Positions 3,464 to 56,421 of a DNA stretch of 64,000 nucleotides are shown here, piece by piece. A model generated the notes under the pieces. The model was not told the DNA's origin. It did not search any database and saw only the letters and a program-made list of their open reading frames with translations. The position numbers and the translations under genes are program-made. Position 1 is the stretch's first letter, and each line of letters opens with the position of its first letter. Source of the DNA: an uncultured Candidatus Saccharibacteria bacterium (GTDB taxonomy: Bacteria > Patescibacteriota > Minisyncoccia > Phycocordibacterales > UBA9973); assembly GCA_964596395.1 (NCBI GenBank), contig CAZQSY010000005.1, positions 1,628 to 65,627 of the forward strand. The letters run 5' to 3'.

Positions 3464-3529
3464 AAATTAGAAATTAATATAAGAAAATAATGATAATTAT
3501 ACTAGTGGTATTATAGCATGTACACAAAT

Positions 3530-4759: not shown

Positions 4760-4770
4760 GATTTTTCATT

Positions 4771-21916: not shown

Positions 21917-22909
21917 ATGTCTAAATTAGATTTTCTCGCAATCGGCGACACAGTTATAGACGCTTTTATAAGAATCAAAGACGCGCACGTGCATTGCAAG
22001 CTAGACACGGCAAACTGCGAATTATGCTTCCGCTTCGGCGACAAAATACCGTATGAATCGCTCGAGGTTGTCCCGGCTGTGGGTAACAGCGCAAACGCGG
22101 CTGTGGCCGCGGCTCGGCTCGGGCTTTCTTCGGCATTAGTCGCAAACATCGGCAAAGACCGCGATGGCGACGACTGCCTTGTATCCCTGAAAAAAAACAA
22201 AGTGCTGACCAAATACATCACGGCAGAAAAAAACAAGAAAACAAATTACCACTACGTGCTGTGGTACGACACCGAACGAACAATCTTGATTAAACACACC
22301 GAATTTACATACAGCTTCCCGAAGATTAAAAATGTCTCTTGGGTTTATTTGAGTTCTCTCGCCGACCATTCTCTACCCTATCACGGGGAAATCGCGGAGT
22401 TTTTGAAAAAGAATCCAGAAACCAAGCTCGCCTTCCAGCCCGGTACCTTCCAAATGAAATTCGGCACGGAAGATCTCAAAGAAATTTACGAAAGAACGGA
22501 AGTATTTTTCTGCAATTTGGAAGAAGCGCAAAGAATTCTAAAAACCGAAGAGAAAGGTGTTTTAAAACTCTCGCAGGGCCTCGCTTCGCTCGGCCCCAAA
22601 ATGGTGGTAATAAGCGACGGACCGAACGGAGCGTACCTGTACATGAATGGCGAGCTCTGGCACCAGCCGATTTACCCCGACATCGCCCCGCCCTTTGAAC
22701 GCACCGGCGCGGGAGACGCTTTTTCCTCTACCATAACCTGCGCGCTCGCGCTCGGCAAAACCCCGCTTGAAGCTCTTGCCTGGGGACCGGTAAATTCAAT
22801 GTCGGTAGTGCAAAAAGTAGGCGCGCAAGCCGGCCTCCTTTCCCGCGAGAAATTAGAAGAATACCTCCGCACCGCGCCGGAGAGTTATAAACCGATAAAA
22901 ATAAGCTAG
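21917..22909 (+). CDS. PfkB-family carbohydrate/nucleoside kinase
   Basis: 330 aa. N-terminal LAIGDTVIDAF and C-terminal GAGDAFSSTITCALALG PfkB motif. Confidence 0.8.
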   Translation: MSKLDFLAIGDTVIDAFIRIKDAHVHCKLDTANCELCFRFGDKIPYESLEVVPAVGNSANAAVAAARLGLSSALVANIGKDRDGDDCLVSLKKNKVLTKYITAEKNKKTNYHYVLWYDTERTILIKHTEFTYSFPKIKNVSWVYLSSLADHSLPYHGEIAEFLKKNPETKLAFQPGTFQMKFGTEDLKEIYERTEVFFCNLEEAQRILKTEEKGVLKLSQGLASLGPKMVVISDGPNGAYLYMNGELWHQPIYPDIAPPFERTGAGDAFSSTITCALALGKTPLEALAWGPVNSMSVVQKVGAQAGLLSREKLEEYLRTAPESYKPIKIS

Positions 22910-22937
22910 CTTGCTGGTTTTCGTTTTAAAATATTTT

Positions 22938-22995
22938 CTACCGCCTCTTTTATGTCTTTCACCCCCCATCCCATAATGCTCTATAAGTTCGTTGG
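22938..22995. repeat. Direct repeat R1: frameshifted duplicate of a transketolase-C-like 3' end
   Basis: ctaccgcctcttttatgtctttcaccccccatccc... is ~85% identical to 23538-23594, exactly 600 bp away. Revcomp encodes ..NELIEHYGMGG(fs)VKDIKEAVENIL. Confidence 0.55.
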
Positions 22996-23036
22996 ATACG
23001 TTGACCTGTGTGCAAGAAATGTATTAAAATCATCTT

Positions 23037-23471
23037 ATGGACTTTAAAAAACATCTCGAAATTTTCTTACGTAACCCCCACAAAAAAAAAGAGGAATCAA
23101 AAGTATTAGATTGGGGTAGTTTGAAACTAGGCCCAGCGCCAGAAAATTTTAATCTTCCAGAGAATTATCTTTACAATTACGGTGCAGCACTAAATTTTTT
23201 AGAAAGAAAGTGTGATAAAAGCTGGAGACAAAATGAGGAAACCGGCAACTGGGAGGGCAAATATAAAGATTGCAATGTGATACTTTTTCCACCGAGAGTT
23301 CCGGAGGAGTTAAGTGACGGGAGTAAAGCTTTTCTGGATGAAAAATTCATGCAAGGAAATTATTTTCCAATGCTTAAGCATAAGGGCGGTAGTCAGGAGG
23401 ATTTTTTTGAGCTGCTGAGTATGCTAAAGAAAGAAAAACGCGCACTTGTTGACTTTGAAGTTCCTGACTAG
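23037..23471 (+). CDS. hypothetical protein (inserted cargo between duplicated tktC 3' fragments)
   Basis: 144 aa, no recognisable family. Shares a local ILFPPR...KAF..(E/K)F motif with the 237-aa gene at 35007-35720. Confidence 0.4.
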   Translation: MDFKKHLEIFLRNPHKKKEESKVLDWGSLKLGPAPENFNLPENYLYNYGAALNFLERKCDKSWRQNEETGNWEGKYKDCNVILFPPRVPEELSDGSKAFLDEKFMQGNYFPMLKHKGGSQEDFFELLSMLKKEKRALVDFEVPD

Positions 23472-23537
23472 CGGGACTAGCGAAAAATTCCTAAAAATAA
23501 CAGGGTTGGGGCTATTTTTTCTTTTTCAAAACCTTAC

Positions 23538-23594
23538 CTACCGCCTCTTTTATATCTTTCACCCCCATCCCGTAACACTCGATCAGTTCGTCGG
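23538..23594. repeat. Direct repeat R2: second copy of the tktC 3'-end motif, immediately downstream of the tktC stop
   Basis: Revcomp, out of frame with tktC, encodes KFCGQAPDELIECYGMGVKDIKEAVGKVLKKKK*. This echoes the genuine tktC terminus FGQSGLPAELLAHYHMDIVDIKRVV. Confidence 0.55.
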
Positions 23595-23618
23595 GGGCCT
23601 GCCCGCAAAACTTTGGGA

Positions 23619-24620
23619 CTAAAATTTTTTTCTCGTTATAACTTGCAGAACAACCCTTTTAATATCAACTATGTCCATGTGGTAGTGTGCCAGAAGTTCG
23701 GCGGGTAAACCGGATTGGCCGAACTTGTTTTGTACGCCGACGAATTCAATAGGTACCGGATAATTTTGCGCTAGAACTTCTGCTACAGCCCCACCCATGC
23801 CTCCCCTTACCTGATGCTCTTCTACTGTCACAACGGCTTTGCATTCTTTGGCCAGAGCTATCACAGCTCCTTCATCTATCGGCGAAATCGAAGACAAATT
23901 CATAACTTTGGTTTTTATTCCCTCTTGCTCAAGCTCTTTCGCCGCAACTAGCGCGCGGTAAAGTAACGCGCCGGTGGCGATTATACCCGCATCTGCAAGT
24001 CCGGCATCAGGTAACCAGTAAATTTGCGCCCTGCCGACTTCAAAAGATGTCTCTTCGGTGGTGATAATCGGCGTCTTTTCGCGAGCCAAGCGTAAATATG
24101 CCGGTTTTCTTGTTTTTGCCAACGCGATTGTCGCCTTTTTCGCTTCTATCGCATCGCACGGAGAAATGACGTCCATATTCGGGAGCGCCCGCATCATGGC
24201 AATATCTTCGAGCGCCTGGTGACTGCCGCCGTCAGGGCCCACCGAGATGCCGGCATGGCTCCCAACAATTACCACCTTCCTATCATTGTATGCGATCGTC
24301 GTCCGTATCTGTTCCCAATTTCGCCCGGGCGAAAAAGTCGCGTACGAAGAACAAAAAGGAATTTTTCCCATTGCCGCCATACCCGAGGCCACCGTCACCA
24401 AGTTCTGTTCGGCCACGCCGATTTCTACAAATCTTTCGGGGAATTTTTCTTTGAACAAATGCATCTGGGTGGACTCTGTCAAGTCCGCGCAAAGCGCGAC
24501 GACATTGCCATCCGCCTCCCCCGCCTTGAGCAACCCTTCCCCGAAACCTTTGCGTATCGGCGCCTGCTCAACATCATTACTGAAAATTTTTGGATTTAAT
24601 TTTAATTCCGGGTTTAACAT
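23619..24620 (-). CDS. tktC: Transketolase, C-terminal subunit (pyrimidine-binding plus C-terminal domains)
   Basis: 333 aa. PIRKGFGEGL, FVEIGVAEQNLV, SHAGISVGPDGGSHQALEDIA. Confidence 0.9.
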   Translation of the reverse strand: MLNPELKLNPKIFSNDVEQAPIRKGFGEGLLKAGEADGNVVALCADLTESTQMHLFKEKFPERFVEIGVAEQNLVTVASGMAAMGKIPFCSSYATFSPGRNWEQIRTTIAYNDRKVVIVGSHAGISVGPDGGSHQALEDIAMMRALPNMDVISPCDAIEAKKATIALAKTRKPAYLRLAREKTPIITTEETSFEVGRAQIYWLPDAGLADAGIIATGALLYRALVAAKELEQEGIKTKVMNLSSISPIDEGAVIALAKECKAVVTVEEHQVRGGMGGAVAEVLAQNYPVPIEFVGVQNKFGQSGLPAELLAHYHMDIVDIKRVVLQVITRKKF

Positions 24621-24651: not shown

Positions 24652-24674
24652 ACTTGGAAGTCCGACTTCCAAGT
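24652..24674. repeat. REP-like 23-bp palindrome (copy C), left boundary of the RAYT/SDR insertion; overlaps the putative RAYT promoter
   Basis: ACTTGGAAGTCCGACTTCCAAGT, 31 bp upstream of the tktC start. Its TTGGAA (24654-24659) lies 17 bp upstream of TGgTATAAT (24674-24682). Confidence 0.8.
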
Positions 24675-24682
24675 GGTATAAT

Positions 24683-25315
24683 TTGGCTATGAGGAAACAT
24701 AAATTCGTGGAGGGAGAATACTACCACATATATAACCGTGGAACAGAAAAAAGAAAAATAATCCTAGACGAATACGACCTAGACCGTTTTCTAGAAAGCA
24801 TGAAAGAGTTCAACACATTAGAACCTATAGGAAGTATTTACGAACAATCTTTCATAAAAAAGGAACTTGGAAGTCCGACTTCCAAGTCCAAACTGGTATC
24901 AATAATATCCTACTGCATAAACCCAAACCATTTTCATATGCTGATTACTCCCCTAGTAGAAAAGGGGATAGAAAAGTTTATGCAAAGAATTGGTGGTTAT
25001 ACTAAATATTTTAACGAAAAATATAAAAGAAACGGGGTTCTGTTTCAAGGTAAATTTAAATCAAAACATGTCTATACAGATAATAGATATTTGCTTCACT
25101 TAAGCGCTTACATAAACATGAACAACCGCAACCGACTTGGAAGTCCGACTTCCAAGTTGAGTAAATCGAGCTTGGAAGAATACACTAAAGGCGAAAAGGG
25201 TATCTGTAACATGGATATAGTCTTGGGTCAGTTTGAAAACGGAAAAGAGTATCTAAGGTTTTCTTTGGAATCCTGGCAAGATACGCAGGAAAGAAAAAAA
25301 GCTCTTGAAATGTAA
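24683..25315 (+). CDS. REP-associated tyrosine transposase (RAYT; IS200/IS605-like HUH-Y1), carrying two in-frame REP copies
   Basis: YYHIYNRG (cf. RAYT YHVTQRG), HUH motif NPNHFHMLITP (cf. SNHVHLLLTP), GGYTKYFNEKYKRNGVLFQGKFKSKHVYTDNRYLLHLSAYIN (cf. YTRYINRRYGRTGHLWQGRFKS...EYLLACSRYIELNP). The likely true start is the ATG at 24689. Confidence 0.75.
   Translation: MAMRKHKFVEGEYYHIYNRGTEKRKIILDEYDLDRFLESMKEFNTLEPIGSIYEQSFIKKELGSPTSKSKLVSIISYCINPNHFHMLITPLVEKGIEKFMQRIGGYTKYFNEKYKRNGVLFQGKFKSKHVYTDNRYLLHLSAYINMNNRNRLGSPTSKLSKSSLEEYTKGEKGICNMDIVLGQFENGKEYLRFSLESWQDTQERKKALEM
24865..24887. repeat. REP-like palindrome (copy D), in-frame inside the RAYT gene
   Basis: ACTTGGAAGTCCGACTTCCAAGT encoding ELGSPTSK. 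Confidence 0.8.
25135..25157. repeat. REP-like palindrome (copy E), in-frame inside the RAYT gene
   Basis: ACTTGGAAGTCCGACTTCCAAGT encoding RLGSPTSKL, near the RAYT C-terminus. Confidence 0.8.
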
Positions 25316-26090: not shown

Positions 26091-26113
26091 ACTTGGAAGT
26101 CGGACTTCCAAGT
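26091..26113. repeat. REP-like palindrome (copy F, centre G = inverted orientation), right boundary of the RAYT/SDR insertion
   Basis: ACTTGGAAGTCGGACTTCCAAGT, 2 bp after the tktN stop and 10 bp before the SDR start. Confidence 0.8.
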
Positions 26114-31697: not shown

Positions 31698-34600
31698 TTG
31701 CCAATGGAAACTTCAGAAGTAAGCTTCATTCACCTCCACACTCACAGCCATTATTCCCTGCTGGACGGCCTTTCGAAGCTCAAAGACCTCATATCTCTAG
31801 CTAAAAAAAACAAAATGCCGGCGCTGGCGATTACCGACCACGGCAACATGTACGGAGCCATTGAATTCTATAAACTCGCCAAAAAAGAAGGTATCAAGCC
31901 GATTATCGGCGTTGAAGCGTATATGACGGCCGGTTCGCGTAAAGACCGCACAACCGAGGCCGGAGGAACTAAAAGGTATTACCACCTAACCCTGCTCGCT
32001 AAAAACTTAGAGGGGTACAAGAACCTTATCCGGCTGGTAACCATCTCAAACCTGGAGGGTTATTACTACAAACCCCGAATGGACAAAGAAATCCTTCGCG
32101 AGTACAGCGGGGGCGTCATCGCCCTCTCGGGCTGCATGGGCGGGGAACTTTCGCAGACGGTGCTGAAAGGAGATATGGAAAAAGCAGACAAGCTGGTGCG
32201 GGAATACCAGGATATTTTCGGCAAAGAAAATTATTTTATAGAAATACAGAGCCATCCTTCGGTTGAAGGCGACAAGCACCTGCGAGACGCGTTAATCGAG
32301 CTCGGCAAAAAACACGGCATACCGGTGGTGGCCACGCAGGATTCGCACTATCCCTGCAGCGTTGACCACGAAGCGCATCACACGCTTCTTAAAATCAACA
32401 CGCAAAGCTACGACAGCGAAGCAAAGTTTGAATTTTCGGAAGATGATTTTTCGCTAATCAGCACCGAGAAGGCCGTGGAGGTCTTCAAAGAAATCCCGGA
32501 AGCGGTGACAAACACTATGAAGGTCGCCGATATGTGCAATCTAGAACTCGAACTCGGCAAATGGGTCTTCCCGGATTTAAAGATAGAAGAAGGAAAAACT
32601 TACGACCAAAAACTGCGCGAGCTGGCGTACGAAGGATTCGAGAAAATCGGCGCCGAAAAAACGCCGGAAGTCCTGGAGCGGGTGGAGTACGAACTCCAAA
32701 TAATACAAAAGAAGGGCTACGCGCCGTATTTCCTGGTGGTGAGCGACCTTTTGCGCTATGCCAAAGAGAACAATATCCTCACGGCGATTCGCGGCTCGGT
32801 GGCCGGTTCTGTGGTCACGTATCTTACCGGCATTACCAAAATTAATCCGATTGAATACAAACTCCCGTTTGAAAGATTCTTAAACCCCTTCCGCCCTTCC
32901 CCGCCCGATATCGACATGGATTACGCCGACAACCGCCGCGACGAGATGATTGAATACGTGAAGAAAAAATACGGAGAAGACAAGGTGGCGCAAATAGGAA
33001 CTTTCGGCACGATGATGGCCCGCGGCTCCGTGCGCGATGTGGCCCGCGCCCTGGGCTACGAATACTCGGTCGGCGACAGAATTTCAAAAATGATTCCGCT
33101 CGGTTCGCAAGGCATGCCGATGACCATAGAACACGCCATGGAAATCGTGCCGGAACTCAAAGAAGCGTACGAAAAAGAAAAAGATACGAAAAAAATCATA
33201 GACCTGGCAGAAAAACTCGAAGGGTGTGTGCGGCACATCTCGGTGCACGCGGCCGGCGTAGTTATCGCGCCCAAGCCGCTTTACGAATACGTGCCGACCC
33301 AACTCGACCCGAAGGGGGGAAAAATCATCACTCAATACGACATGTATAGTGTGGAAGATGCCGGGCTTTTGAAATTTGATTTTCTCGGCATTAGAAACCT
33401 CGCCATCCTAGGAGACGCGATTAACCTGGTAAAAAAATTTTACAATATTGATATTGACATTGAACGCATCCCGCTGGACGACAAAAAAACATTCGCGCTT
33501 TTAGCCCGCGGCCAGACCGAAGGACTCTTTCAGCTAAATGGCGCGGGTATGACCAGATTCCTCAAAGAGCTTCGCCCTTCTTCCATCCACGACATCAACG
33601 CGATGGTGGCCCTTTACCGGCCGGGGCCGATGGAATCAATTCCGGAATACATCAAGCGCAAGCACGACCGCAAATTCGTGAAGTACCTCGACCCGCGCAT
33701 GAAAAAATTCCTGGGCGAATCCTACGGGCTTATCGTGTACCAAGACGACCTCTTGTTCTGCGCCATAGAACTGGCCGGCTACAACTGGGAGGAGGCCGAC
33801 AAATTCCGCAAAGCGGTCGGCAAGAAAATTCCCGAAGAAATGGCGGCGCAGTATGAAAAATTTACCAAGGGGATCATCGCCAACGGCCAGACCCCCGAAT
33901 TTGCCGAGAAACTGTGGAAACTTTTTGAGCCATTCCAGGCCTACGGTTTCAACAAAGCGCACGCCGCGAGCTACGGCCGGGTCGCCTACCAAACCGCTTA
34001 CATGAAAGCAAACTTCCCGGTGGAATACATGACCGCCATTCTCACCGCCGAATCGGGCGACGTGGAGAAAGTGGCCGTTATCATCAACGAATGCAAGAAC
34101 ATGAAAATTCCGGTGCTGCCCCCGTCGATAAACGAAAGCTTCGGCGGATTCACGGTTATCGGGCACGAGAACGGGGGCGAAAAACCCACGCCGGAAGCCA
34201 CGGCCAAGGCGGGGAAAATACGATTCGGGCTGCACACGATTAAAAATCTCGGCACCGACATCGCCGACGCGATTATCGCCGAGAGAAAGACGGGAGGAAA
34301 ATTCAAATCAATCGGGGACTTTCTAGACAGAATCAAACACAAAAACTTAAACAAAAAATCCATGGAAGCTCTCATAAAATCCGGCAGTATGGACGAATTC
34401 GGAGAAAGAGGCGCGCTCTTGGGAAACCTCGAAGACATGCTCGCCTACCACCGCGAATCGGCGAACCAAAACAAAAATCAGATTTCCCTTTTCGGCGGAA
34501 TGCCCGAGTCGCAAACAGTCACGTACAAACTTAAAGATTTCCCCGCCGCCAAGCCGCAGGAAAAACTGGCCTGGGAGAAAGAATTATTAGGGCTTTATAT

Positions 34601-34934
34601 TTCGGGCCACCCCCTAGACCGCCTGCGGGAAAAATTGGAAAAAAGAGAAATCAATATACGAAAAATAAAAGAGGAGCTCGGCAACGGCATACCAGTCACC
34701 ATCGCCGGCATCATCGACGACGCGCGGGTAATTATTACAAAGAACCAGAGTGACCGCATGGCCTTCCTCAAAATTAGTGACCTCACCGGCACGATCGAGG
34801 CCGTGGTCTTTCCTTCGATTTTCAAAGAATCCGCCGAGATTCTCGTCCCCGAAAAATGTATCGCGCTCTCGGGCAAGGTCTCCTTGCGCAACGGCGAAAA
34901 AAGCATAATAATAGAGGCACTTAAGGAGGTCTAG
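31698..34934 (+). CDS. dnaE: DNA polymerase III alpha subunit
   Basis: 1078 aa. PHP domain FIHLHTHSHYSLLDGLS, polymerase core GIRNLAILGD..., OB-fold C-terminus. Confidence 0.95.
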   Translation: MPMETSEVSFIHLHTHSHYSLLDGLSKLKDLISLAKKNKMPALAITDHGNMYGAIEFYKLAKKEGIKPIIGVEAYMTAGSRKDRTTEAGGTKRYYHLTLLAKNLEGYKNLIRLVTISNLEGYYYKPRMDKEILREYSGGVIALSGCMGGELSQTVLKGDMEKADKLVREYQDIFGKENYFIEIQSHPSVEGDKHLRDALIELGKKHGIPVVATQDSHYPCSVDHEAHHTLLKINTQSYDSEAKFEFSEDDFSLISTEKAVEVFKEIPEAVTNTMKVADMCNLELELGKWVFPDLKIEEGKTYDQKLRELAYEGFEKIGAEKTPEVLERVEYELQIIQKKGYAPYFLVVSDLLRYAKENNILTAIRGSVAGSVVTYLTGITKINPIEYKLPFERFLNPFRPSPPDIDMDYADNRRDEMIEYVKKKYGEDKVAQIGTFGTMMARGSVRDVARALGYEYSVGDRISKMIPLGSQGMPMTIEHAMEIVPELKEAYEKEKDTKKIIDLAEKLEGCVRHISVHAAGVVIAPKPLYEYVPTQLDPKGGKIITQYDMYSVEDAGLLKFDFLGIRNLAILGDAINLVKKFYNIDIDIERIPLDDKKTFALLARGQTEGLFQLNGAGMTRFLKELRPSSIHDINAMVALYRPGPMESIPEYIKRKHDRKFVKYLDPRMKKFLGESYGLIVYQDDLLFCAIELAGYNWEEADKFRKAVGKKIPEEMAAQYEKFTKGIIANGQTPEFAEKLWKLFEPFQAYGFNKAHAASYGRVAYQTAYMKANFPVEYMTAILTAESGDVEKVAVIINECKNMKIPVLPPSINESFGGFTVIGHENGGEKPTPEATAKAGKIRFGLHTIKNLGTDIADAIIAERKTGGKFKSIGDFLDRIKHKNLNKKSMEALIKSGSMDEFGERGALLGNLEDMLAYHRESANQNKNQISLFGGMPESQTVTYKLKDFPAAKPQEKLAWEKELLGLYISGHPLDRLREKLEKREINIRKIKEELGNGIPVTIAGIIDDARVIITKNQSDRMAFLKISDLTGTIEAVVFPSIFKESAEILVPEKCIALSGKVSLRNGEKSIIIEALKEV

Positions 34935-34966
34935 TTAAATAAACTCATTGCTTTTTCTTTGCCTTC
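34933..34966. repeat. Duplicated pth 3'-end fragment (direct repeat copy 1)
   Basis: agttaaataaactcattgctttttctttgccttc; revcomp encodes ..EGKEKAMSLFN* versus genuine Pth C-terminus ..ESKEKAMSLYN*. Contains a 22-bp run identical to 35737-35758. Confidence 0.6.
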
Positions 34967-35006
34967 ATCTACCCCACAGGCAAGACCTGTGGGTCAGACT
35001 TTTGTC

Positions 35007-35720
35007 CTATTTTATTTTGCCGTAAATATTATTTAACCGAAAAAAAGAATCTTTTATAGCTAAAAGATTGTCTAAAAAAGAACTGGCAGCTACCCTATTT
35101 GTACTTCTGGTATCAGATAAATAAGGATTTGTGCTAAGAGCACTCTCAACATCTAAAATGACTAAATCCCATGTGCCATCAGGATGGACAACTAACTCAA
35201 AAGCATCATCAACTGGTAGTCTTATTTTGCTTTCATTTGCTAATTTCTTATATTTTTTGACTTTTTCCTCTATCTTCCTAAACTCCTCTTTGTCATTAAC
35301 AATCTTTAAAAAATTTTCCTTGTTTTTCATTCCTTCAAAAGCTTTTAAGGTAGTACGAGGAGGTGGAAATAAGAGAATATTTTGAAGTTCATAAGCCAAG
35401 GATTTTCCAAACAATTCACTTCCATCAGCTTTTAAATCTGTCATGAAAACACGCCCATCATCTGTTTCTCTTAAAGTAGGCACGACTGGAAAACCAATTC
35501 CTTTCAATATTTTCCATTTCTCGGAAATTTTCAGACCTCCTACATTGATATTTTCCCTTTCTACCAGCTTTACTTTTTTTACTTTGTTTTTGTGGTGTAT
35601 CTCTGCGTGATGTACATACTTTTTAGCAGTCCCGTACTCTATATTTTTTTTATCCTTGGAAAAAATTTCAACCGGATTCTTTTTTGACCTAAGTACAGAT
35701 CTAAGAGAAAATTTTTCCAT
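35007..35720 (-). CDS. hypothetical protein (inserted between duplicated pth 3' ends; weak atypical-kinase-like features)
   Basis: 237 aa. LVVHPDGTWDLVILDVESA weakly resembles an HxD....N / DxD catalytic and metal-binding pair. Shares ILLFPPPR..KAF..ENF with the 144-aa gene at 23037. Confidence 0.4.
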   Translation of the reverse strand: MEKFSLRSVLRSKKNPVEIFSKDKKNIEYGTAKKYVHHAEIHHKNKVKKVKLVERENINVGGLKISEKWKILKGIGFPVVPTLRETDDGRVFMTDLKADGSELFGKSLAYELQNILLFPPPRTTLKAFEGMKNKENFLKIVNDKEEFRKIEEKVKKYKKLANESKIRLPVDDAFELVVHPDGTWDLVILDVESALSTNPYLSDTRSTNRVAASSFLDNLLAIKDSFFRLNNIYGKIK

Positions 35721-35726
35721 AGAAAA

Positions 35727-36323
35727 TTAGTTATACAAACTCATTGCTTTTTCTTTGCTTTCGGTGAAAATTGTTTCTACCGCTTCGGCCACTTTCTTGG
35801 AAATTTTTTTTATTTCTTCCAGTTCGCTTTTCTTGAAATCGCCCAAGAGGAATTTCAAAACCGCTTCCTCCCCTTTCGGCTTCTTGATTTTACCGGATGG
35901 AGTCGCCGGCGAAATGCCCACGCGAATGCGCACGAATTCTTCGGATTTCAAGGCCTTGATGATAGAGCCGAGGCCATTGTGCCCGCCCGACGAACGGTTA
36001 AAAGAAATTTTCATTTTGCCCAACGGTAAATCAATATCATCGTAAATCACCACAATATCATTCAGTTTCAATTTGTGTTTTTCTTTTACGTATAGTACCG
36101 CTTTGCCGGAATTATTCATGAATGTCGTTGGCTTTAGATATTCGGTTTTCTTGTTCGCTGGAAAATCCTTCCAACAAAACAAAGCTTTAGTGCCAGAACT
36201 TTCTTTCCATTCGGCATTTTTACCCAACATGAAATCAAGCACGATATAACCCGTGTTATGCCTAGTGTTTTTGTATTCTTCGCCCGGATTCCCCAGACCG
36301 ACTAAGAGTTTCATGCCTCTCAT
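35727..36323 (-). CDS. pth: Peptidyl-tRNA hydrolase
   Basis: MKLLVGLGNPGEEYKNTRHNTGYIVLD, GGHNGLGSI. Confidence 0.9.
   Translation of the reverse strand: MRGMKLLVGLGNPGEEYKNTRHNTGYIVLDFMLGKNAEWKESSGTKALFCWKDFPANKKTEYLKPTTFMNNSGKAVLYVKEKHKLKLNDIVVIYDDIDLPLGKMKISFNRSSGGHNGLGSIIKALKSEEFVRIRVGISPATPSGKIKKPKGEEAVLKFLLGDFKKSELEEIKKISKKVAEAVETIFTESKEKAMSLYN
35729..35762. repeat. pth 3' end (direct repeat copy 2, functional copy)
   Basis: agttatacaaactcattgctttttctttgctttc, overlapping the last 11 codons and stop of pth. Confidence 0.6.
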
Positions 36324-38886: not shown

Positions 38887-39183
38887 CTACTTTTTTACTT
38901 TCACCAACGCTTCAACAATTTTCGCTATATCCGCAACTGCCAGAGAAGCAGCATTCTCCAACGGTGAATTCGCTTCGGGTTTTGCAATCATAATAAGCTT
39001 GTATCTATCTAAAATTAGTCCAAACAGACGATTAATTGATGTCGGGTGTTTTTGAACAAAATCAGCCGCCTCTTCAAAAAGATTTTTAGGCCTGGATTCA
39101 GTTTCAGTGGTTGTTATTTTTTGAAGTAAATTTTGAATCAAACCTTCAACATTTACTACTTGTGCAGACTCATTTAATTTCAT
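38887..39183 (-). CDS. hypothetical protein (antisense insertion between def and fmt)
   Basis: 98-aa ORF, no family recognised. It interrupts the usual def-fmt adjacency. Confidence 0.3.
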   Translation of the reverse strand: MKLNESAQVVNVEGLIQNLLQKITTTETESRPKNLFEEAADFVQKHPTSINRLFGLILDRYKLIMIAKPEANSPLENAASLAVADIAKIVEALVKVKK

Positions 39184-39236: not shown

Positions 39237-40142
39237 ATGGAAAAACTAATCAATACAAGCAGAAGGCTAACCTTTGCATTTTGGGGAACGCCGAAGATAG
39301 CGAGCGAAACTTTAGAAATTCTGAAAGAAAGCGGTTTTTTGCCGTCGCTCATAATTACTTCGCCCGACAGGCCGCAGGGGCGGAAAATGACCGTAACCCC
39401 CCCGCCGGTAAAAGTTTGGGCGGTGGAAAATAACATTCCATATCTGCAGCCGGAGAACTTCATGTCAAGGACGGTCCTTGACACTTTGTCAAAGGGCACC
39501 TTTGACATATCTGTTGTTGTTGCTTACGGAAAGATAATTCCGGAGGAAATTTTAGACATGCCAAAATTTGGCTCAATAAACGTGCACTATTCCCTGCTCC
39601 CAAAATACCGCGGGGCCTCGCCTGTCGAATCTGCAGTATTAAATGGTGAAACAGAAACTGGCGTAAGTATTCAGAAGATGGAATACAAGATGGATACCGG
39701 CCCGATTCTGGCCGCAGAAAAAACGGAAATTGGCAAAGACGAAAAAGCGCCGGAGCTTAAAAAACGCCTGACAAAAATCGGCGGAGAATTGTTAATAAAG
39801 TTATTGAATACCACCCCCACCCTTGATAAGGAGGGGGGCTGGGAAGGGGTCAAACAAGACGAATCCCAAGCCACTTACTGCAAAAAAATAAAAAAAGAAG
39901 ACGGACTAGTGAATCTGGAAGCTGAACTCCCAATTACGCTGTACAACAAATTCCGCGCCTACGCCGAGTGGCCCAGGATTTTCTTTTTCAGATGGCACCT
40001 GCCTGCCGGCAGGCAGGAAAGAGTAATCATTACCGATGCTTCGCTTGAGGACGGAAAATTCGCAATCAAAAAAGTTTTACCCGAGGGCAGAAAAGAAATA
40101 ACCTGGGAAGAATTCAAGAAAAACTATTCTAATATTCTATAG
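39237..40142 (+). CDS. fmt: Methionyl-tRNA formyltransferase
   Basis: FWGTPKIASETLE, INVHYSLLPKYRGASPVESAVLNGETETGVSI, C-terminal Fmt domain. Confidence 0.9.
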   Translation: MEKLINTSRRLTFAFWGTPKIASETLEILKESGFLPSLIITSPDRPQGRKMTVTPPPVKVWAVENNIPYLQPENFMSRTVLDTLSKGTFDISVVVAYGKIIPEEILDMPKFGSINVHYSLLPKYRGASPVESAVLNGETETGVSIQKMEYKMDTGPILAAEKTEIGKDEKAPELKKRLTKIGGELLIKLLNTTPTLDKEGGWEGVKQDESQATYCKKIKKEDGLVNLEAELPITLYNKFRAYAEWPRIFFFRWHLPAGRQERVIITDASLEDGKFAIKKVLPEGRKEITWEEFKKNYSNIL

Positions 40143-40162
40143 AATTGTAGAATAGATTGTTT

Positions 40163-45562: not shown

Positions 45563-45644
45563 TTTAATATTTTGCAGAATGTTATAATGTTCTTGTTCTA
45601 ATATTCTATAGAATTCTAGAATACTTTATAATCATAAAGAATTT

Positions 45645-50619: not shown

Positions 50620-53600
50620 TTAATTGTTAACCTTCCAATTTCTTATCATCAGGTCAAAGTCGCGCGTATCCACGACATCGTCGTTATTAAAGTCTGCCGG
50701 ATTTCCATTTCCTGTTTCTCCCCAATGAACCAAAAGCAGATTGAAGTCAAGAATTGTGTATGTTCTATCGTTTTCCCTCGTGCGAGAACGGCCTCCGCTA
50801 GAGCTAGTACTCCCCCCGCTGTTAACGGTACTTTGGCTAGGAGTAACCAAAATAGTTCTTTTAACTTCAGAAGCTTTATTGCCTGCGGAATCTGTGGCAT
50901 TATAAGTAACCTCGTAAGATCCGGGCGTGGAAGAATCTACAGTATCACCCCCCAACACAACCTCTACTGTGCCGTCCTTGTCATCAGTGGCGGTCGCGCC
51001 TTCTTCGGTGTAAACATCACCAGCGGTAAGACTTACTACAGAAGAACCATTAAGGGTAATTATCGGCGGAGTTGTATCGGGAGATTCGGTCACATTTACG
51101 GTGCGTATAACTTGTTCTGCTTGGTTGCCAACGCTATCTGCGGCGTCGTAGGTGACTTCGTAAGCACCCAGAACCCCTGTATCTACCGCATCACCTCCAA
51201 TTGATACAGAGACACTCCCTTCAACCGCATCTTGGGCAACTGCCCCTTCTTCGGTATAAGTTGAACCGAGAGCTATATTTAGCGTGGCGCCCCCATTAAG
51301 AGTTATAACTGGAGGAGTCGTATCAGAAACGGTAACCGTGAAAGAAGTGGGGACTGCGAAATTGCCACTCTGATCGGAAGCTGAGCACTCAACTATCGTT
51401 TCCCCCAGAGTGAAGGATGAACCCGACCCAGGAGTACAGATAGCTACTAAGTTAGTATCTATGTTGTCGGTAACCGAAGGCAGGGTGTAAGAGACTTCCG
51501 CACCTGAAGAAGAAGTGGCCTCGGCAGTCACGTTTTCATGAATCGCAATTTCTGGAACTTGCGTGTCTATAATAAGCGAAGCGCTCTTTTCAGCTTGATT
51601 ACCAAGTGTGTCGGTTGCCACCGCAGTGATAGTATAAGTACCATTAGTGAGAGTAAGGGCGCTAAAATTATAAGACCAGGTGTTGTCTCCATCGAAAACA
51701 TTATCTGAAGAAGGATTACCGGAAATTGTGACAACTACGGACTGAATAGTCACCTCTTCGGAGGCACTAGTAGCACTGACCGTGCCGGACACCGCAGTAC
51801 TATTCGGAGCGATGGGCACGTTTATCTCTAAGTTTGGAGCACTAGTATTTATAACGACTGAACCAGAAGCCGTGCCGACATTGCCTGCCTCATCCGTGCC
51901 AGATGCCTCTACCGAATAAGTGCCATCACTTAGCGAATCGGTGATATCAGCCAACCAAGTACCGTTGGTTCCAGAAGTCGGCGTAACCTCGGCGTCGTAT
52001 TCCACATCATTTATCTTTACTTTTACGGAAGCAGAGCTGTCGTTCGTGGTACCAGTAATAGTCGGAGTGCTGTCATTAGTTGTCTGCGAATTCACTGTAA
52101 GTTCGGGCACAGTAAAGTCAATCGAGAAACTTACATCTTTCGAAGCCGTGTTCCCTACTTCATCAAGAGCGCTCACGAGGAAAGTATAAGAGCCTTCGGC
52201 GTATTCTGAAATATCAATCGGCGAGGAAGGACACGGGGCAGGTGAAGCGCTGTTTAAGGAACAAAGCGGATCGCCGGTAGCGCCGGAAACTGCAAATACG
52301 ATTTGCGCTTCGGCAAGAGTTTCAGAATTTATGTTATTATCGGGTTCGACTGAAAGATCAACAACTGGCCCTGTCGCGTCAACAGTAAACGAATCACTCG
52401 TACCTTCCGCAGAATTGCCGCCTTCATCGGTGGCCTTGACTGTAACGGTATGTGAGCCATCTACAGTTATTGTGGGAACAAACGGGCTAGAGCAAGCTTC
52501 GAATGAGCCGTCGTCAACCTTGCATTCTGTAGTCGTTTCTGTGTTGTCGGTTACAACAAACTCGATAGACGGGGCGCCTGAAGTTGGGCTGGAAGGAGTG
52601 CTTACTGAAACAGACGGATTTGTGGTATCTGTCACAGTTGCGGTGAAACTAGTCGCCAAGGCCTCATTCCCACTCGTGTCAGTGGCCGTACAGTTAATGG
52701 TCGTATCACCAAAGTCAAACAAGGAACCGAAAGCAGGTGTACAAACTGCCGAAAACTGAGAATCATAGTTATCATCTACCAGAGGTGCCGTATAAGTTAC
52801 CACGGTGCCGGAAGTAGAAGTAGCTTCAACCGAGGCCAAATTTTCATGAGCCTGGATAACAGGTATAGTCGTATCCACCACATTTACTGTGCGAACGACT
52901 TCAGTAGCAGAATTGCCGTTTGAATCAGTAACGTTATACGTGACAGAATACTCCCCGACAACCGAAGTATTTACAGAATCTACCGTGACGATCGAGGCCG
53001 TGAGATCGCCATCCAAATTATCGCTTGCTGTGGCGCCAGAGTCGGTATAGGTGCTTCCTACCTCTACGGCAGTTGTGCTATCGCCAAGCAAAGTAATCAC
53101 CGGTTTAGTGCCGTCTATTACGTTTACGGTTCGTACTGCCTCATCAGCGATATTGCCGTTGGCGTCAGTGACGTTATACGTAACCGTATATGCCCCTAAG
53201 ACCCCAGTGTTTACAGAATTTACCGTGACGATCGAGGCCGAGAGGTCGCCATCCAAATTATCGTTTGCCGTGGCGCCAGGGTCGGTATAGGTGCCAAACA
53301 CTTCTGCAGATGCAGGGTTATCTCCAAGGATTGTTATCGACGGCTTAGTCGTGTCTATCACATTCACGGTACGGGTAACTTCTAGAGCTGTATTGCCGCT
53401 CGAATCAACCGCATTGTAGGTAACAGTATACGAACCAAGCACAGAAGTATTTACAGAAGAAGAATCTATGGTGGCTTCAAGGCCTGTATCATAATTATCT
53501 GTTACTGTAGCCCCTAATTCAGGGTACGACGAACCTGCCTGTATAGTTTGAGGATTATCGCCATCTAGAGTTATAACCGGCGGAGTGGTATCGGAAACGT

Positions 53601-56421
53601 TTACATCAAATTTGGTTGAAGTTGCAGCATTGCCTGCGTCATCTGTAACATTACAAGTAACTTCTGTTGACCCTAGAGCAAATGTTGAACCGGAAGCTGG
53701 TGTACAACTAGCAGTAAGACCGACACTAATGTTGTCAGTAACTACAGGTAGGTCATAAGAAACTATCGCCCCAGCCGGAGAAGTCGCTTCGGCTGAAACA
53801 TCGGCGTGTGCGACAATTACCGGCGCAGTAGTGTCCACTTTCCAAGTGAAGGTAACTACTGTCCCGAATGCTGATCCATCGGTAGATTTTACACTCACCG
53901 TATGGGTACCATCAGCAAGATCATTGTAATCCTTGGGACTCGTACAAGCCGTATACCCTGCCCCATCGAGATCACATTCTGAAGCTATCACGGCAACAGA
54001 ATCCGTAGCAGAGAAAGATACTGTTGCGAAATTAGATTTAGTGGTGTCACCACTATCTAGTGCTATATTGTCACCGTCTTTCACGGAAGTTATGGTAGTA
54101 ACTGGCCCTAAGGTATCTACAACATTTATGTTGAAAGTTTTAGTGCCTAAGTTTCCCCCCGTGTCAGAAGCAGTGCAAGTCACAGTGGTGATGCCAATCG
54201 GAAAAGTATCTCCTGAGAGAACGACTTTGGGGAAATTCACTCCCCAGACTGGGTGACCTTCATCCGGATAAGTAAGCGTAGGAATAGTACAAAAAGCACT
54301 AAGAGGAGAAGGCAAGCCAGTATCATCATCAGTTACAGAAGTGGTGAAGGATACAGGAGCACCGAGCGAAGAGGTTGCCTCCACGGTAATAACCCCTGAA
54401 ACTTCTTCCGTAATAGTGACAACTGGAGCCCCGGGATTCGACACGGGGTTGCCATTCATAAGAGCCAAACCCTCCTTTACTGTTACCACATCAACGCTAG
54501 ACCCTTTATCTGAAAGATAATTAATTATTTCCGAGAAAGAGTCCAGATTTATACAGAAGGTTTCTGATCCACAGTCTGGTTTTACTTCATGAAAAACTAA
54601 GATAAGCCAATCGCCTTTTGCTATAGCTCCATCAATCCACTCCTCCACACTGCCGAATCCGTCGGGATCCGGGTCAGAAGCAGATATAGGTGTGTTTAGA
54701 TTAACCTGGGCAGCAGAGAGCTTGTAGCGGTCACTTGATTTGTTGTTGTAAATAGGCTGACCTAATGCATCGATAAAATTCACAGTTCGTGCTCCGCCAC
54801 TGATGCCGGCCGATTTTAATTTATCAATTAAAGCATCATCGAATTCTCCAAACGGATAAGCAAAAGTACTAAAATAAGTATTGGCAGAAACACCTACGGC
54901 TGACAAGAGATCGAAGCGTAAACCATCCACCTCTGAAAAAAGATCCCTGGGTGAGAGCCCTTTTAACCCAACACCAGATGCACAATTATCTGTCGGATCC
55001 TCGGGGTCATCTCCGGGAGCGCATGGATCAGTCCTAGTGTGTGGAGCAATTTCATGGCCTTCACTGTCCAAAGTGTTTAACTCGGCAGAAGTCATGAAAT
55101 CATCACATCCAACTCCGCCATCAGCACAACCCACAGCACCCGAAATAATGTATTGAGTACTATCAAAACCAGCAGTGTTCAAAGTAGGACGGGCATAGTC
55201 GTAGATTGACTTTGTACCGTCGTCAAAAGACAAACTAACCATACCCCTTTCAAAAACGTTTGCATTGATAGTAAATACAGGAAGGGAAAGAACATTGCTC
55301 TGGTTACTAGATGAGTCTGTCACCTTTATAGCGCAGTTGCTGTAAGTACCTTCAGTTAGAGGTCCATAAGTCACCGTATTGTTGCCCACTACTGCGTTTG
55401 CAACGCTACCACTTCCGCAATCTCCGGTATAGGTCACAGCTCCAGCTTCAGTGGAACTAAAAACATAGCTCGGAGTTGTGTCGCTAGAAGTGGTCGGTAC
55501 AACGGTAATTTGCGCTAGAACGGGAGCAGTAGCATCGACTGTGTAATAGACTTTTACCTGAATCTGGTCAATATCCAAATCCCCTGTTGCAGAAATTGGA
55601 TCAATCCTCACTAAGAAGTTTCCATTATTAAAATCGCCTGGCGCCCATACATGGCTACCCCATTTGTCTGTAGGTGATCCCAATACAACTATCCTCTCGG
55701 TCGTTGTTAGATCTGTCCCATTTTTTGCGGTCGCGAAACTTGTTCCATTATTCCAAGAAAGGTTGGCACTGAAGGTGCGAGGCATAACTCCACCATCTCT
55801 TTTACCCTCTACAGAAACTTCTATGCCATCAATAGTAGCCGAGGCTGGTATTAAATACCCGAAGTTCTTGTAATCTACAATATCGTTGTTGTCGTTAAAG
55901 GTTGCGTAAGAGTTATTTGAAGTTAGGCCGTTGGCTTCAACAATATCACTGCCTCCATCACTGACCTCAGTAGCAATTGTCGGGGCATTCCAACCGCTTA
56001 CCACAAACACGGCATTGGTCAGTGTAAGAGTGGACCCTCCGGAGGTGCATCCGTTACCATTGTAAGCTACAAAGTATGCATTATAGAGGCCAGGGGTACT
56101 AGGGGCATTTATATTAAAAGTCTCGTCAGTATCACCATTACTGTTGTCTGGTGTATCAACGCAGGTTAGTGAGCCTGGAGAAGTTGCAATTCTCCAACCG
56201 GTAGAGTTCCAGTCATTGCTCGTACCAGAACCGGAAGCATTTACAGTAAGGTTGACTGAGATTATTCCACTAGGTGCGACTGCGTTTTGTGTAAGCACTG
56301 CAGACTGTGCATCCGCTGCCGCAAAAACTTTCAGAGGCCCAAACAGGAAGCTTAAAACAAAAACCAGCACAGTAATCCCTGTATATAGAAACTTAATATT
56401 GCTGTTCATGTCCTTTACCAT
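50620..56421 (-). CDS. Giant cell-surface protein (1933 aa) with CE4 polysaccharide-deacetylase domain, HYR and Ig-like (DUF5011-type) repeats, dockerin-like C-terminus
   Basis: Signal peptide; NodB motif MVSLSFDDGT; HYR-like VVTDNISVGLTASCTP / TAPLVDDNYDSQFSAVCTP; repeated DTT.P.ITL.GD......G..YT..GATA.DN.DG units; C-terminal DFNNDDVVDTRDFDLMIRNW dockerin-like motif. Confidence 0.8.
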   Translation of the reverse strand: MVKDMNSNIKFLYTGITVLVFVLSFLFGPLKVFAAADAQSAVLTQNAVAPSGIISVNLTVNASGSGTSNDWNSTGWRIATSPGSLTCVDTPDNSNGDTDETFNINAPSTPGLYNAYFVAYNGNGCTSGGSTLTLTNAVFVVSGWNAPTIATEVSDGGSDIVEANGLTSNNSYATFNDNNDIVDYKNFGYLIPASATIDGIEVSVEGKRDGGVMPRTFSANLSWNNGTSFATAKNGTDLTTTERIVVLGSPTDKWGSHVWAPGDFNNGNFLVRIDPISATGDLDIDQIQVKVYYTVDATAPVLAQITVVPTTSSDTTPSYVFSSTEAGAVTYTGDCGSGSVANAVVGNNTVTYGPLTEGTYSNCAIKVTDSSSNQSNVLSLPVFTINANVFERGMVSLSFDDGTKSIYDYARPTLNTAGFDSTQYIISGAVGCADGGVGCDDFMTSAELNTLDSEGHEIAPHTRTDPCAPGDDPEDPTDNCASGVGLKGLSPRDLFSEVDGLRFDLLSAVGVSANTYFSTFAYPFGEFDDALIDKLKSAGISGGARTVNFIDALGQPIYNNKSSDRYKLSAAQVNLNTPISASDPDPDGFGSVEEWIDGAIAKGDWLILVFHEVKPDCGSETFCINLDSFSEIINYLSDKGSSVDVVTVKEGLALMNGNPVSNPGAPVVTITEEVSGVITVEATSSLGAPVSFTTSVTDDDTGLPSPLSAFCTIPTLTYPDEGHPVWGVNFPKVVLSGDTFPIGITTVTCTASDTGGNLGTKTFNINVVDTLGPVTTITSVKDGDNIALDSGDTTKSNFATVSFSATDSVAVIASECDLDGAGYTACTSPKDYNDLADGTHTVSVKSTDGSAFGTVVTFTWKVDTTAPVIVAHADVSAEATSPAGAIVSYDLPVVTDNISVGLTASCTPASGSTFALGSTEVTCNVTDDAGNAATSTKFDVNVSDTTPPVITLDGDNPQTIQAGSSYPELGATVTDNYDTGLEATIDSSSVNTSVLGSYTVTYNAVDSSGNTALEVTRTVNVIDTTKPSITILGDNPASAEVFGTYTDPGATANDNLDGDLSASIVTVNSVNTGVLGAYTVTYNVTDANGNIADEAVRTVNVIDGTKPVITLLGDSTTAVEVGSTYTDSGATASDNLDGDLTASIVTVDSVNTSVVGEYSVTYNVTDSNGNSATEVVRTVNVVDTTIPVIQAHENLASVEATSTSGTVVTYTAPLVDDNYDSQFSAVCTPAFGSLFDFGDTTINCTATDTSGNEALATSFTATVTDTTNPSVSVSTPSSPTSGAPSIEFVVTDNTETTTECKVDDGSFEACSSPFVPTITVDGSHTVTVKATDEGGNSAEGTSDSFTVDATGPVVDLSVEPDNNINSETLAEAQIVFAVSGATGDPLCSLNSASPAPCPSSPIDISEYAEGSYTFLVSALDEVGNTASKDVSFSIDFTVPELTVNSQTTNDSTPTITGTTNDSSASVKVKINDVEYDAEVTPTSGTNGTWLADITDSLSDGTYSVEASGTDEAGNVGTASGSVVINTSAPNLEINVPIAPNSTAVSGTVSATSASEEVTIQSVVVTISGNPSSDNVFDGDNTWSYNFSALTLTNGTYTITAVATDTLGNQAEKSASLIIDTQVPEIAIHENVTAEATSSSGAEVSYTLPSVTDNIDTNLVAICTPGSGSSFTLGETIVECSASDQSGNFAVPTSFTVTVSDTTPPVITLNGGATLNIALGSTYTEEGAVAQDAVEGSVSVSIGGDAVDTGVLGAYEVTYDAADSVGNQAEQVIRTVNVTESPDTTPPIITLNGSSVVSLTAGDVYTEEGATATDDKDGTVEVVLGGDTVDSSTPGSYEVTYNATDSAGNKASEVKRTILVTPSQSTVNSGGSTSSSGGRSRTRENDRTYTILDFNLLLVHWGETGNGNPADFNNDDVVDTRDFDLMIRNWKVNN
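52931..53650. repeat. Intragenic tandem repeat, 3 x 240 bp (80-aa Ig-like domain units) within the giant surface-protein gene
   Basis: acgttatacgtgacagaatactcc.. at 52931 and acgttatacgtaaccgtatatgcc.. at 53171 are near-identical over ~200 bp; a third, diverged unit starts at 53411. Confidence 0.7.

Follow-up and report, generated by a model that had tools for sequence, protein, structure and literature searches.

Background

The genomes of the bacteria considered here are tiny and tightly packed, with convergent essential genes even sharing bases of their stop codons, and the route by which new genes enter them has been unclear. One junction in a stretch of 64,000 nucleotides from an uncultured Candidatus Saccharibacteria bacterium (contig CAZQSY010000005.1 of assembly GCA_964596395.1; hereafter 'the window') raises this question directly. 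Here the genes for peptidyl-tRNA hydrolase (pth) and the alpha subunit of DNA polymerase III (dnaE) converge on a 237-residue open reading frame (ORF), which we call orfX, and the last codons of pth occur twice, once at the end of the working gene and once beyond orfX, against the end of dnaE. How did orfX come to lie there with pth intact? We report that the upstream copy is a genuine displaced 3' end of pth, that is, an insertion scar, at the ancestral, overlapping-stop junction with dnaE.

Scars of this kind suggest a route of entry in which the incoming gene brings with it a spare tail of the neighbouring essential gene, so that the target gene stays unbroken. The displaced tails serve also as datable fossils of interspecies transfer and could be counted across thousands of assembled genomes as a measure of its frequency. 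Furthermore orfX belongs to a sizeable, unnamed family with a predicted kinase-like fold, whose recurrence at variable spots makes it a candidate for functional study.

Results

The scar at the pth/dnaE junction

The dnaE gene occupies positions 31698–34934 of the plus strand (1078 amino acids; 73–88% identical by tblastn to DnaE in 124 related loci) and pth, convergent with it, positions 35727–36323 of the minus strand. The 198-residue product of pth matches PF01195 over its full length (profile positions 1–183 of 183, E 2.8e-52). Positions 34932–34966 and 35728–35762 form a direct repeat of 35 nt, of which 32 (91%) are identical, with the two copies 796 nt apart; when both stop codons are counted the repeat becomes 36 nt long, with 32 of 36 identical. 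A first-pass annotation of the window, made from the sequence by a model, had put the repeat at about 34 bp with an identical core of 22 bp, and this description stands with only the small refinement in length. The core is an exact match of 34941–34962 to 35737–35758 and is the likely region of crossover. Excepting repetitive extragenic palindromes (REPs) and paralogous or tandem coding repeats, no other exact direct repeat at short range in the window is as long as this 22-mer, and by our own estimate some 3e-5 exact matches of 22 nt are expected by chance (about 5e8 position pairs within 8 kb, multiplied by 4^-22).

The downstream copy (copy B, 35727–35762, minus strand) is the working end of pth and consists, as annotated, of the last 11 codons of the ORF, reading ESKEKAMSLYN, and its TAA stop. 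Translation of the upstream copy (copy A, 34931–34966, minus strand) gives EGKEKAMSLFN followed by TAG, the same relic that the annotation had read there. The stop codon of the relic (CTA on the plus strand, 34931–34933) and that of dnaE (TAG, 34932–34934) share two nucleotides and so form the sequence CTAG; position 34933 falls within the dnaE stop codon. On the plus strand, in the direction from the relic to pth, there follow a 6-nt spacer that includes a CTAC tag, a hairpin, a 13-nt spacer and then orfX (35007–35720, minus strand), which lies between the two copies just as had been stated. Its start codon is 6 nt past the stop of pth, on the same strand.

Base composition sets orfX apart from its neighbours. 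Its GC content is 0.32 and its GC content at third codon positions (GC3) 0.26, the lowest GC3 of the 52 genes of the window, and it is compositionally foreign. The dnaE gene is native, since it is GC-rich (GC3 0.64) up to its stop. Most of pth also has native composition: its GC content is 0.415 and its GC3 0.50 overall, with values of 0.64–0.67 in codons 100–165 and of 0.39 in the last 33 codons.

In scans of the site neither promoters nor terminators scored above chance, and the hairpin is no terminator of the T-tailed kind. There is no tRNA near the site and no Rfam family, save one match at chance level (E 0.76). We also observe that the Pth protein of the window has an insertion of about 19 residues at residues 33–51 (LGKNAEWKESSGTKALFCW), which is shared by only a handful of its relatives (L002, L004, L005 and L009; L-numbers are the labels of the related loci that we compared).

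The empty site in related loci

The first-pass annotation had proposed a search for an empty site in related genomes. The best matches of the window's Pth and DnaE are assembled genomes bearing the names Nomurabacteria and Paceibacteria, and the window belongs to a member of that type within the Patescibacteria. We compared 160 loci around relatives of Pth, taken from species-representative genomes and from metagenomes in two sets that are not de-replicated. In 124 of these loci pth and dnaE are convergent neighbours. The two stop codons overlap, as TTAA, CTAA, TTAG or CTAG, in 26 of the 124, in the same manner as the relic overlaps dnaE in the window and with no insert; a further 16 loci have a spacing of 10 nt or less and 15 a spacing of 11–110 nt. 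The remaining 67 loci carry inserts of 187–1939 nt, which are mostly unrelated to one another. Among relatives whose DnaE matches over its full length the nearest, L010 (DnaE 83% identical), has an empty site with overlapping stops.

Because relatives such as L010 show this empty, overlapping arrangement, copy A together with dnaE represents the ancestral junction, and approximately 34967–35762 is additional. Comparison with the empty-site relatives thus gives 796 bp of extra DNA, with these coordinates being one of several equivalent phasings within the repeat. Copy B would have come with the cassette, at least in part. That the locus is an insertion scar, as first annotated, is accordingly upheld by two observations, namely that the displaced pth end lies in the overlapping-stop arrangement of the empty-site relatives and that the intervening gene is compositionally foreign. 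Scans of genomes and metagenomes for Pth yielded no relative closer than 77% identity, and for this reason an empty site in the same species could not be shown.

The junction receives a varied cargo. Transposase genes of the Y1 type (the IS200 or REP-associated tyrosine transposase (RAYT) kind, PF01797) are found in 7 of the 31 inserts of the first locus set, each with its own inverted flanking hairpins, and other recurrent cargo includes DUF559 endonucleases, PaaX/Cas2-like proteins, nucleotidyltransferases and, in L107, a HepT/MntA toxin-antitoxin pair. In one locus (L070, 726–2245) a hairpin, CCCACATGTCTGACATGTGGG, stands between all genes of the insert, in the order pth, REP, 161-residue ORF, REP, RAYT, REP, 71-residue ORF, REP, dnaE. 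Small PaaX_M/Cas2-like proteins are encoded between pth and dnaE in L043 (6668–7060), L051 (6637–7200), L053 (6719–7282), L148 (2780–3364) and L170 (3136–3483; also in L171 and L172), and occur too beside orfX-family genes downstream of folD; in L051, L148 and L170 these genes are bracketed by short direct or inverted repeats of their own.

Two alleles of one gene tail

The tails of pth genes are well conserved, with a median pairwise identity among species of 0.75 over 36 nt and a 95th percentile of 0.89, the value that copies A and B also show. An exact run of at least 22 nt occurs in 1.8% of between-species pairs of pth tails, and the tails of some unrelated species reach 32–35 identities in 36. 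Given this conservation the repeat alone is no proof of a duplication on the spot.

The nature of the differences between relic and working copy is more telling. We compared the two in five young scars, namely those of pth in the window, in L033 and in L148 and those of dnaE in L107 and in L014 (relic 1); L033 and L148 are possibly not fully independent. Over the five pairs together, 16 differences are synonymous or exchange one stop for another, and 3 are non-synonymous. The synonymous share expected is 17% if the relic decays neutrally and 29% if the working copy also drifts silently (P = 3e-10 and 1e-6, respectively). The pair in the window contributes two synonymous or stop changes and two replacements (G/S and F/Y), both of which occur in working Pth proteins. 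The relics were thus working gene ends that diverged under selection in different genomes and have hardly decayed since, each event having joined a resident and an imported allele.

Two candidate explanations were tried and set aside. A target-site duplication of the transposase type is ruled out by the synonymous excess in the five young scars. The notion that traffic of cassettes makes the pth tail unusually uniform between species was also rejected, the synonymous-codon identity in the last 11 codons being ordinary.

The REP hairpin and a possible source architecture

Two nucleotides from the relic begins a solo REP hairpin with its CTAC tag (34969–34993). The palindrome itself (34973–34993) reads CCCACAGG-CAAGA-CCTGTGGG, and has a folding energy of -11 kcal/mol (z = -3.5); the tag beside it is GTAG on the other strand. 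Short, GC-rich, tagged with GTAG/CTAC, lying outside genes and beside a gene end, it has the features of the GTAG class of REPs described in PMC3733652; REPs are defined also by many copies, and this type of hairpin is present once in the 64 kb. Hairpins of the same CCCAYAGG type flank Y1 transposase genes in L033, L023, L112 and L139. No gene for a Y1 transposase of the HUH class (PF01797) is present within 34967–35762, whilst such a gene is found in the homologous inserts of L033, L014, L023 and L164, and the cassette of the window has this single hairpin in place of inverted hairpins at both of its ends.

Comparison with two groups of relatives suggests what the cassette may once have been. 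In L033 the order is pth, a 118-residue ORF, hairpin-RAYT-hairpin, TAGA, a 35-nt pth relic, an 84-residue ORF and dnaE, and where hairpin, TAGA and relic meet, L033 agrees with the window to within 2 nt. L148, closely related to L033, shares this relic breakpoint and carries other cargo. The hairpin of the window has the loop of the left hairpin of L033 and the outer flank of the right one, and such a hybrid is what the loss of a transposase between two palindromes would leave.

In L164–166, whose gene neighbourhood is that of the window (fmt-def-hisS-lepB-pth ... dnaE), an orfX homologue (41–44% identical) follows pth and is itself followed by hairpin-Y1_Tnp-hairpins and dnaE. This homologue starts 3 nt past the pth stop, has host-like GC content and is accompanied by no relic. 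In L164 (3440–8645; likewise in L165 and L166) a degenerate hairpin precedes Y1_Tnp and two hairpins (ATCAAGGGGANYCCTTGAT) follow it, the end of the orfX homologue overlapping the first hairpin. According to the first-pass annotation, the same gene between dnaE and pth in relatives, with no duplication, would make the 22-nt match a coincidence. Such a gene does exist in L164–166, in the form of the homologue just described; the arrangement shows the source architecture of the cassette and does not make the repeat coincidental. Taken together, the hairpin and these homologous modules indicate that the cassette is the remnant of a REP/RAYT-associated module.

The window also has a Y1 (RAYT/IS200-like) transposase gene of its own, near tktC (24683–25315, plus strand; PF01797, E 2e-8). 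Its REP type, ACTTGGAAGTCCGACTTCCAAGT, is unlike the hairpin of the scar. This abundant REP is a perfect palindrome with six copies in the window, at 14039–14062, 14339–14362, 24652–24674, 24865–24887, 25135–25157 and 26091–26112. Two of the copies lie in frame inside the transposase ORF, each adding the residues LGSPTSK, so that the hairpin repeat seems to have spread into its own transposase gene.

Comparable scars at other genes

The same architecture had been claimed for tktC in the window, and we find there two relics of the tktC end on the minus strand, on either side of a low-GC ORF of 144 residues (23037–23471) with no family match. Relic 1 (22906–23010) has one frameshift, and its stop overlaps that of a convergent ORF (21917–22909) as CTAG. 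Relic 2 (23512–23619) has an intact frame (..PKFCGQAPDELIECYGMGVKDIKEAVGKVLKKKK*), abuts the working end of tktC (23619–24620) and matches relic 1 with 87% identity over 55 nt. Of the three copies, that at the working end diverges most.

In the relatives, scars of dnaE are found in L014, where there are two relics, one pair tightly brackets hairpin-RAYT-hairpin and a nucleotidyltransferase gene follows the working end, and in L107, where 59 nt are duplicated around HepT/MntA. The repeats of independent dnaE events are 42, 59 and ~72 nt in length. The gap gene of L026 (11121–12348) has its last ~23 codons (WYDNEMGY...stop) in four tandem tails; a few bases after each tail comes a small ORF in the same direction, often with a membrane-like product, and the older copies are the more decayed; further relics of gap are found in L038 (11068–11403), L004 (8362–8418) and L075 (12072–12149). 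In L083 an orfX-family gene (P0061, 2660–3391) lies between the relic and the working end (2533–2591 and 3401–3475, a spacing of 868 nt) of an adenosyltransferase (Cob_adeno_trans) gene, and an orfX-family gene in a scar at a different gene fits with recurrent mobility of tail-bearing cassettes.

In almost all of these scars the cargo comes immediately after the working copy, on the same strand and at a distance of 1–12 nt, as is expected if tail and cargo arrived as one contiguous piece of donor DNA. Of the recurring mechanism that had been proposed to target the 3' ends of housekeeping genes, the recurrence is borne out, with the architecture found in relatives at pth, dnaE and gap, while nothing in the cassette or in the ten low-GC ORFs scanned points to a site-specific recombinase as its agent.

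The cargo gene

The orfX protein has no match in Pfam, PHROGs, PADLOC, NCBIfam, PDB sequences or PDB profiles, and a scan of viral contigs gave nothing. A word-indexed protein search returned just 2–4 relatives, and the family emerged from an exhaustive search, which gave 316 representatives at 50% identity, 157 of them with E <=1e-10. Members are typically 215–245 amino acids long. The family alignment has four invariant residues (K34, G105, D171 and D190) and the motifs LVER, AGLPVVPTLR, TDL.ADGSE.YGK and LP.DDPFEL.VHPDG.W.L..LDL. Beyond the junction studied here, members occupy other variable spots, such as those behind folD, adjacent to PaaX-like genes or next to the gene for serine hydroxymethyltransferase.

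An AlphaFold (AF2) model of orfX built with the family alignment has a mean predicted local distance difference test score (pLDDT) of 93.7 and a predicted template modelling score (pTM) of 0.90; without the alignment the pLDDT is 35. The top Foldseek matches of this model are all protein kinases (Rio1, CASK, GSK3, EGFR and kinases of giant viruses) and are weak, with E of 0.04–0.5 and template modelling scores of 0.34–0.45. The model thus predicts a protein-kinase-like fold, on weak structural matches and outside any named family. The model of orfX is bilobal, and the invariant spacing of K34, D171 and D190 resembles the catalytic triad of the protein-kinase-like superfamily, which includes Rio1 and the eukaryotic-like kinases; orfX differs in having neither the glycine-rich loop nor the HxDxxxxN motif, and in matching no kinase profile by sequence. 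It is probably an ATP-dependent phosphotransferase, and nothing suggests that it acts on DNA.

Other features of the window

An ORF of 98 residues (38887–39183; GC3 0.27, no Pfam match) is wedged between def and fmt with its stop abutting that of def, and may be another recent insertion, although no relic was detected there. A 24-nt near-identical sequence containing a palindrome, CT[A/T]TGTCAAAGGGCACCTTTGACA, occurs at 15394–15417 and at 39484–39507, the second time inside the fmt ORF. The ORF at 50620–56421 (1933 residues) contains, at 52856–53458, tandem repeats of 240 nt that are 70–85% identical. Lastly, an AT-rich intergenic motif, TTCTAATATTCTATAGAAT..TAGAATA, is found at 40127–40154 and 45596–45623, with related sequences at 4769, 18552 and 45562, and may be a candidate promoter or operator.

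Discussion

A proposed cassette that carries its own gene tail

The best reading of the locus, to which we assign a probability of about one half, is that the cassette was added by recombination within the conserved tail of pth and carried a foreign copy of that tail, with host homologous recombination rather than a dedicated integrase performing the exchange. In the ancestral state dnaE and pth would have been convergent with overlapping stops (CTAG). AT-rich DNA would then have arrived from another genome of the Nomurabacteria type, in which the order was pth, an orfX-family gene and REP-RAYT-REP, and would have been joined by one reciprocal crossover, or by an equivalent short-arm exchange after DNA uptake, within the last ~35 nt of pth, whose nucleotide sequence is conserved even where AT-rich relatives are compared with GC-richer ones. 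The tail brought in would keep pth intact and orfX would become its co-directional downstream neighbour, while the resident tail, displaced by 796 nt, would survive as a young relic fused to dnaE. Loss of the transposase gene between its two REP hairpins would finally leave the one hybrid REP. The scar, the empty site of the relatives, the foreign composition, the identity of the REP, the homologous module in relatives and the synonymous excess are observed; the circular or short-arm intermediate and the joining by host recombination are steps that we infer. The geometry matches one reciprocal crossover of the chromosome with a molecule that has a single copy of the tail, or a short-arm exchange equivalent to it, and in experiments a single crossover with a circle that bears part of a gene end leaves this part on either side of the insert (PMC3240628).

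Host homologous recombination is favoured because no recombinase is to be found in the DNA scanned. The annotation's suggestion that a site-specific recombinase be looked for led to nothing: orfX, the sole ORF of the cassette, has no recombinase domain, and none is present among the ten low-GC ORFs of the window that were scanned. It is favoured over a fixed attachment core because the lengths of the dnaE repeats vary. Two further reasons are that the convergent genes can each serve as target and that the start of the repeats falls in the stretch of highest nucleotide conservation near the end of the gene (KEKAMS in pth, WYDNEMGY in gap), in which DNA from an AT-rich donor is still able to pair with that of a GC-richer recipient.

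Several points weigh against this reading. The closest donor candidate for orfX is only 49% identical, so that the import is inferred from composition and architecture only. The breakpoint in pth is the same in the window, L033 and L148, and that in gap the same in L026 and L038, and both facts could be signs of site specificity. In three scars the relic has a REP hairpin directly beside it, an adjacency that hints at a role for a Y1 transposase, for example in making the circle. A repeat of 35 nt with an identical core of 22 nt is near the lower limit for RecA-type exchange, a recombinase may act in trans, our view of the genome being one of 64 kb, and the model leaves the origin of the first unit of tail, cargo and tail unexplained. 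It may be speculated that a circle of tail, cargo and hairpin, excised by Y1 and integrated by homology, would reconcile the shared breakpoints, the adjacency of the hairpin and the short repeat.

Alternative explanations

An unlikely alternative to host recombination, in our estimation, is the integration of a small circular cassette, with an attachment site that imitates the tail of pth, by a dedicated site-specific recombinase whose gene lies either in the donor or in another part of this genome. On this view attL and attR would be the 35-nt repeats, as in genomic islands at gene 3' ends or in elements that exploit integrons or Xer. Direct repeats do flank the insert and one of them does restore the gene end; the shared breakpoints in pth and in gap are as such an enzyme would leave them, the tandem units of tail and ORF, up to four in number, resemble serial integration, and a site that mimics a gene tail would likewise differ from it mostly at synonymous positions. 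Against this stand the lack of a recombinase in the cassette and in the ten low-GC ORFs, the differing lengths of the dnaE repeats, the use of either convergent gene as target and the lack of any tRNA or known RNA site nearby. We think it rather improbable that one-sided homologous recombination, with an illegitimate join at the far end, replaced most of the resident pth by a foreign pth together with orfX and left only the old last 35 nt. This mechanism is known in transformable bacteria (PMC3240628), and the GC content of pth is below that of dnaE, with GC3 falling in its last 33 codons; yet codons 100–165 are native-like in GC3, quite different from orfX, the best relatives of the Pth protein (L002, L009 and L004) are also among the best of DnaE, and random illegitimate joins would not repeat one breakpoint in three genomes.

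Transposition, in which the Y1 (RAYT/IS200-like) enzyme inserted DNA bounded by REPs into the end of pth and made the repeat by duplicating a long target site, is highly doubtful. It would account for the distance of 2–6 nt between REP hairpin and relic in L014, L033 and the window, and for the Y1_Tnp genes in the first set of inserts, but elements of the IS200/IS605 type are reported without larger target duplications (PMC2817692), the almost exclusively synonymous differences are unlike those of a duplication followed by decay of the relic, the gap scars of L026 and L038 and the scar of L148 have no associated transposase gene, and the cassette in the window has only one hairpin. Least credible of all is that orfX is an old resident of the junction, as in L164, the relic having been added afterwards on a segment of dnaE from a relative with an empty site, or that the repeat is a coincidence of conserved sequence. 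The host-like GC content of the homologue in L164–166 and the near-identity of the pth tails of some unrelated species would be in keeping with this, but not the composition of orfX, far from that of the host, nor a relic that is complete, in frame, supplied with a stop and at the position of the ancestral overlap, nor the small number of 22-mers expected by chance. We have also considered the cassettes as reverse-transcribed mRNAs, since each opens within the upstream gene and closes shortly past the ORF; some units, however, contain transposase genes on the opposite strand, which tells against such an origin.

Extending our preferred reading of joining by host recombination, one may tentatively imagine an integrase-free cassette system in the Patescibacteria, in which small cassettes carry 35–70 nt of the conserved tail of an essential gene as a portable homology arm and circles, perhaps cut by REP-associated Y1 transposases, home after uptake to the tail of that gene in any related genome, displace the old tail and build up integron-like arrays behind housekeeping genes, of which the four gap tails of L026 would be an example; we regard this as possible, with the odds rather against it.

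Comparison with known systems

The scars that Campbell-type integration leaves as attL and attR at the 3' ends of tRNA or protein genes are similar in their flanking direct repeats, in the replacement of the gene end by one from the element and in the possibility of tandem arrays, for which the gap tails of L026 may be compared. They differ from the present case, where a unit of 796 bp has no integrase, the repeat length varies at the same gene and either convergent gene is hit. In Rhs and CdiA loci a new end, with its downstream partner, displaces the old one, and displaced 'orphan' C-terminal modules result. Here too the old ends accumulate downstream and are the more decayed the farther away they lie, the gap array of L026 being an example, but the genes are those of housekeeping enzymes, the end that is duplicated is conserved rather than variable, and there is no immunity logic.

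The likeness to integron cassettes consists in a single promoterless gene beside a fixed site, in toxin-antitoxin cargo (HepT/MntA in L107) and in the position of the newest unit nearest the expressed gene. In contrast to integrons, recombination here is at a housekeeping gene's tail, the ORFs scanned include no integrase and the hairpin, of 21 nt, is much shorter than attC. With REP/RAYT units (REPtrons) and the IS200/IS605 elements the scars share the GTAG/CTAC hairpin, the Y1_Tnp gene with inverted hairpins in homologous inserts and a location between convergent genes (PMC3733652), although the cassette of the window lacks a transposase and has one hairpin, and a target duplication of 35 nt is not known for these elements (PMC2817692).

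The minimal mobile elements of Neisseria (Saunders and Snyder 2002), as their definition is given in PMC3787668, are differing cassettes that occupy the place between the same conserved genes, with exchange presumed to proceed by homology. The 67 of 124 pth/dnaE junctions that carry mostly unrelated inserts are, by that definition, similar in offering alternative cassettes between fixed neighbours. Minimal mobile elements are, however, defined there by clean replacement, whereas the genes at the present junction overlap, have no intergenic space between them and keep, at the end of dnaE, the displaced tail of the gene that was entered.

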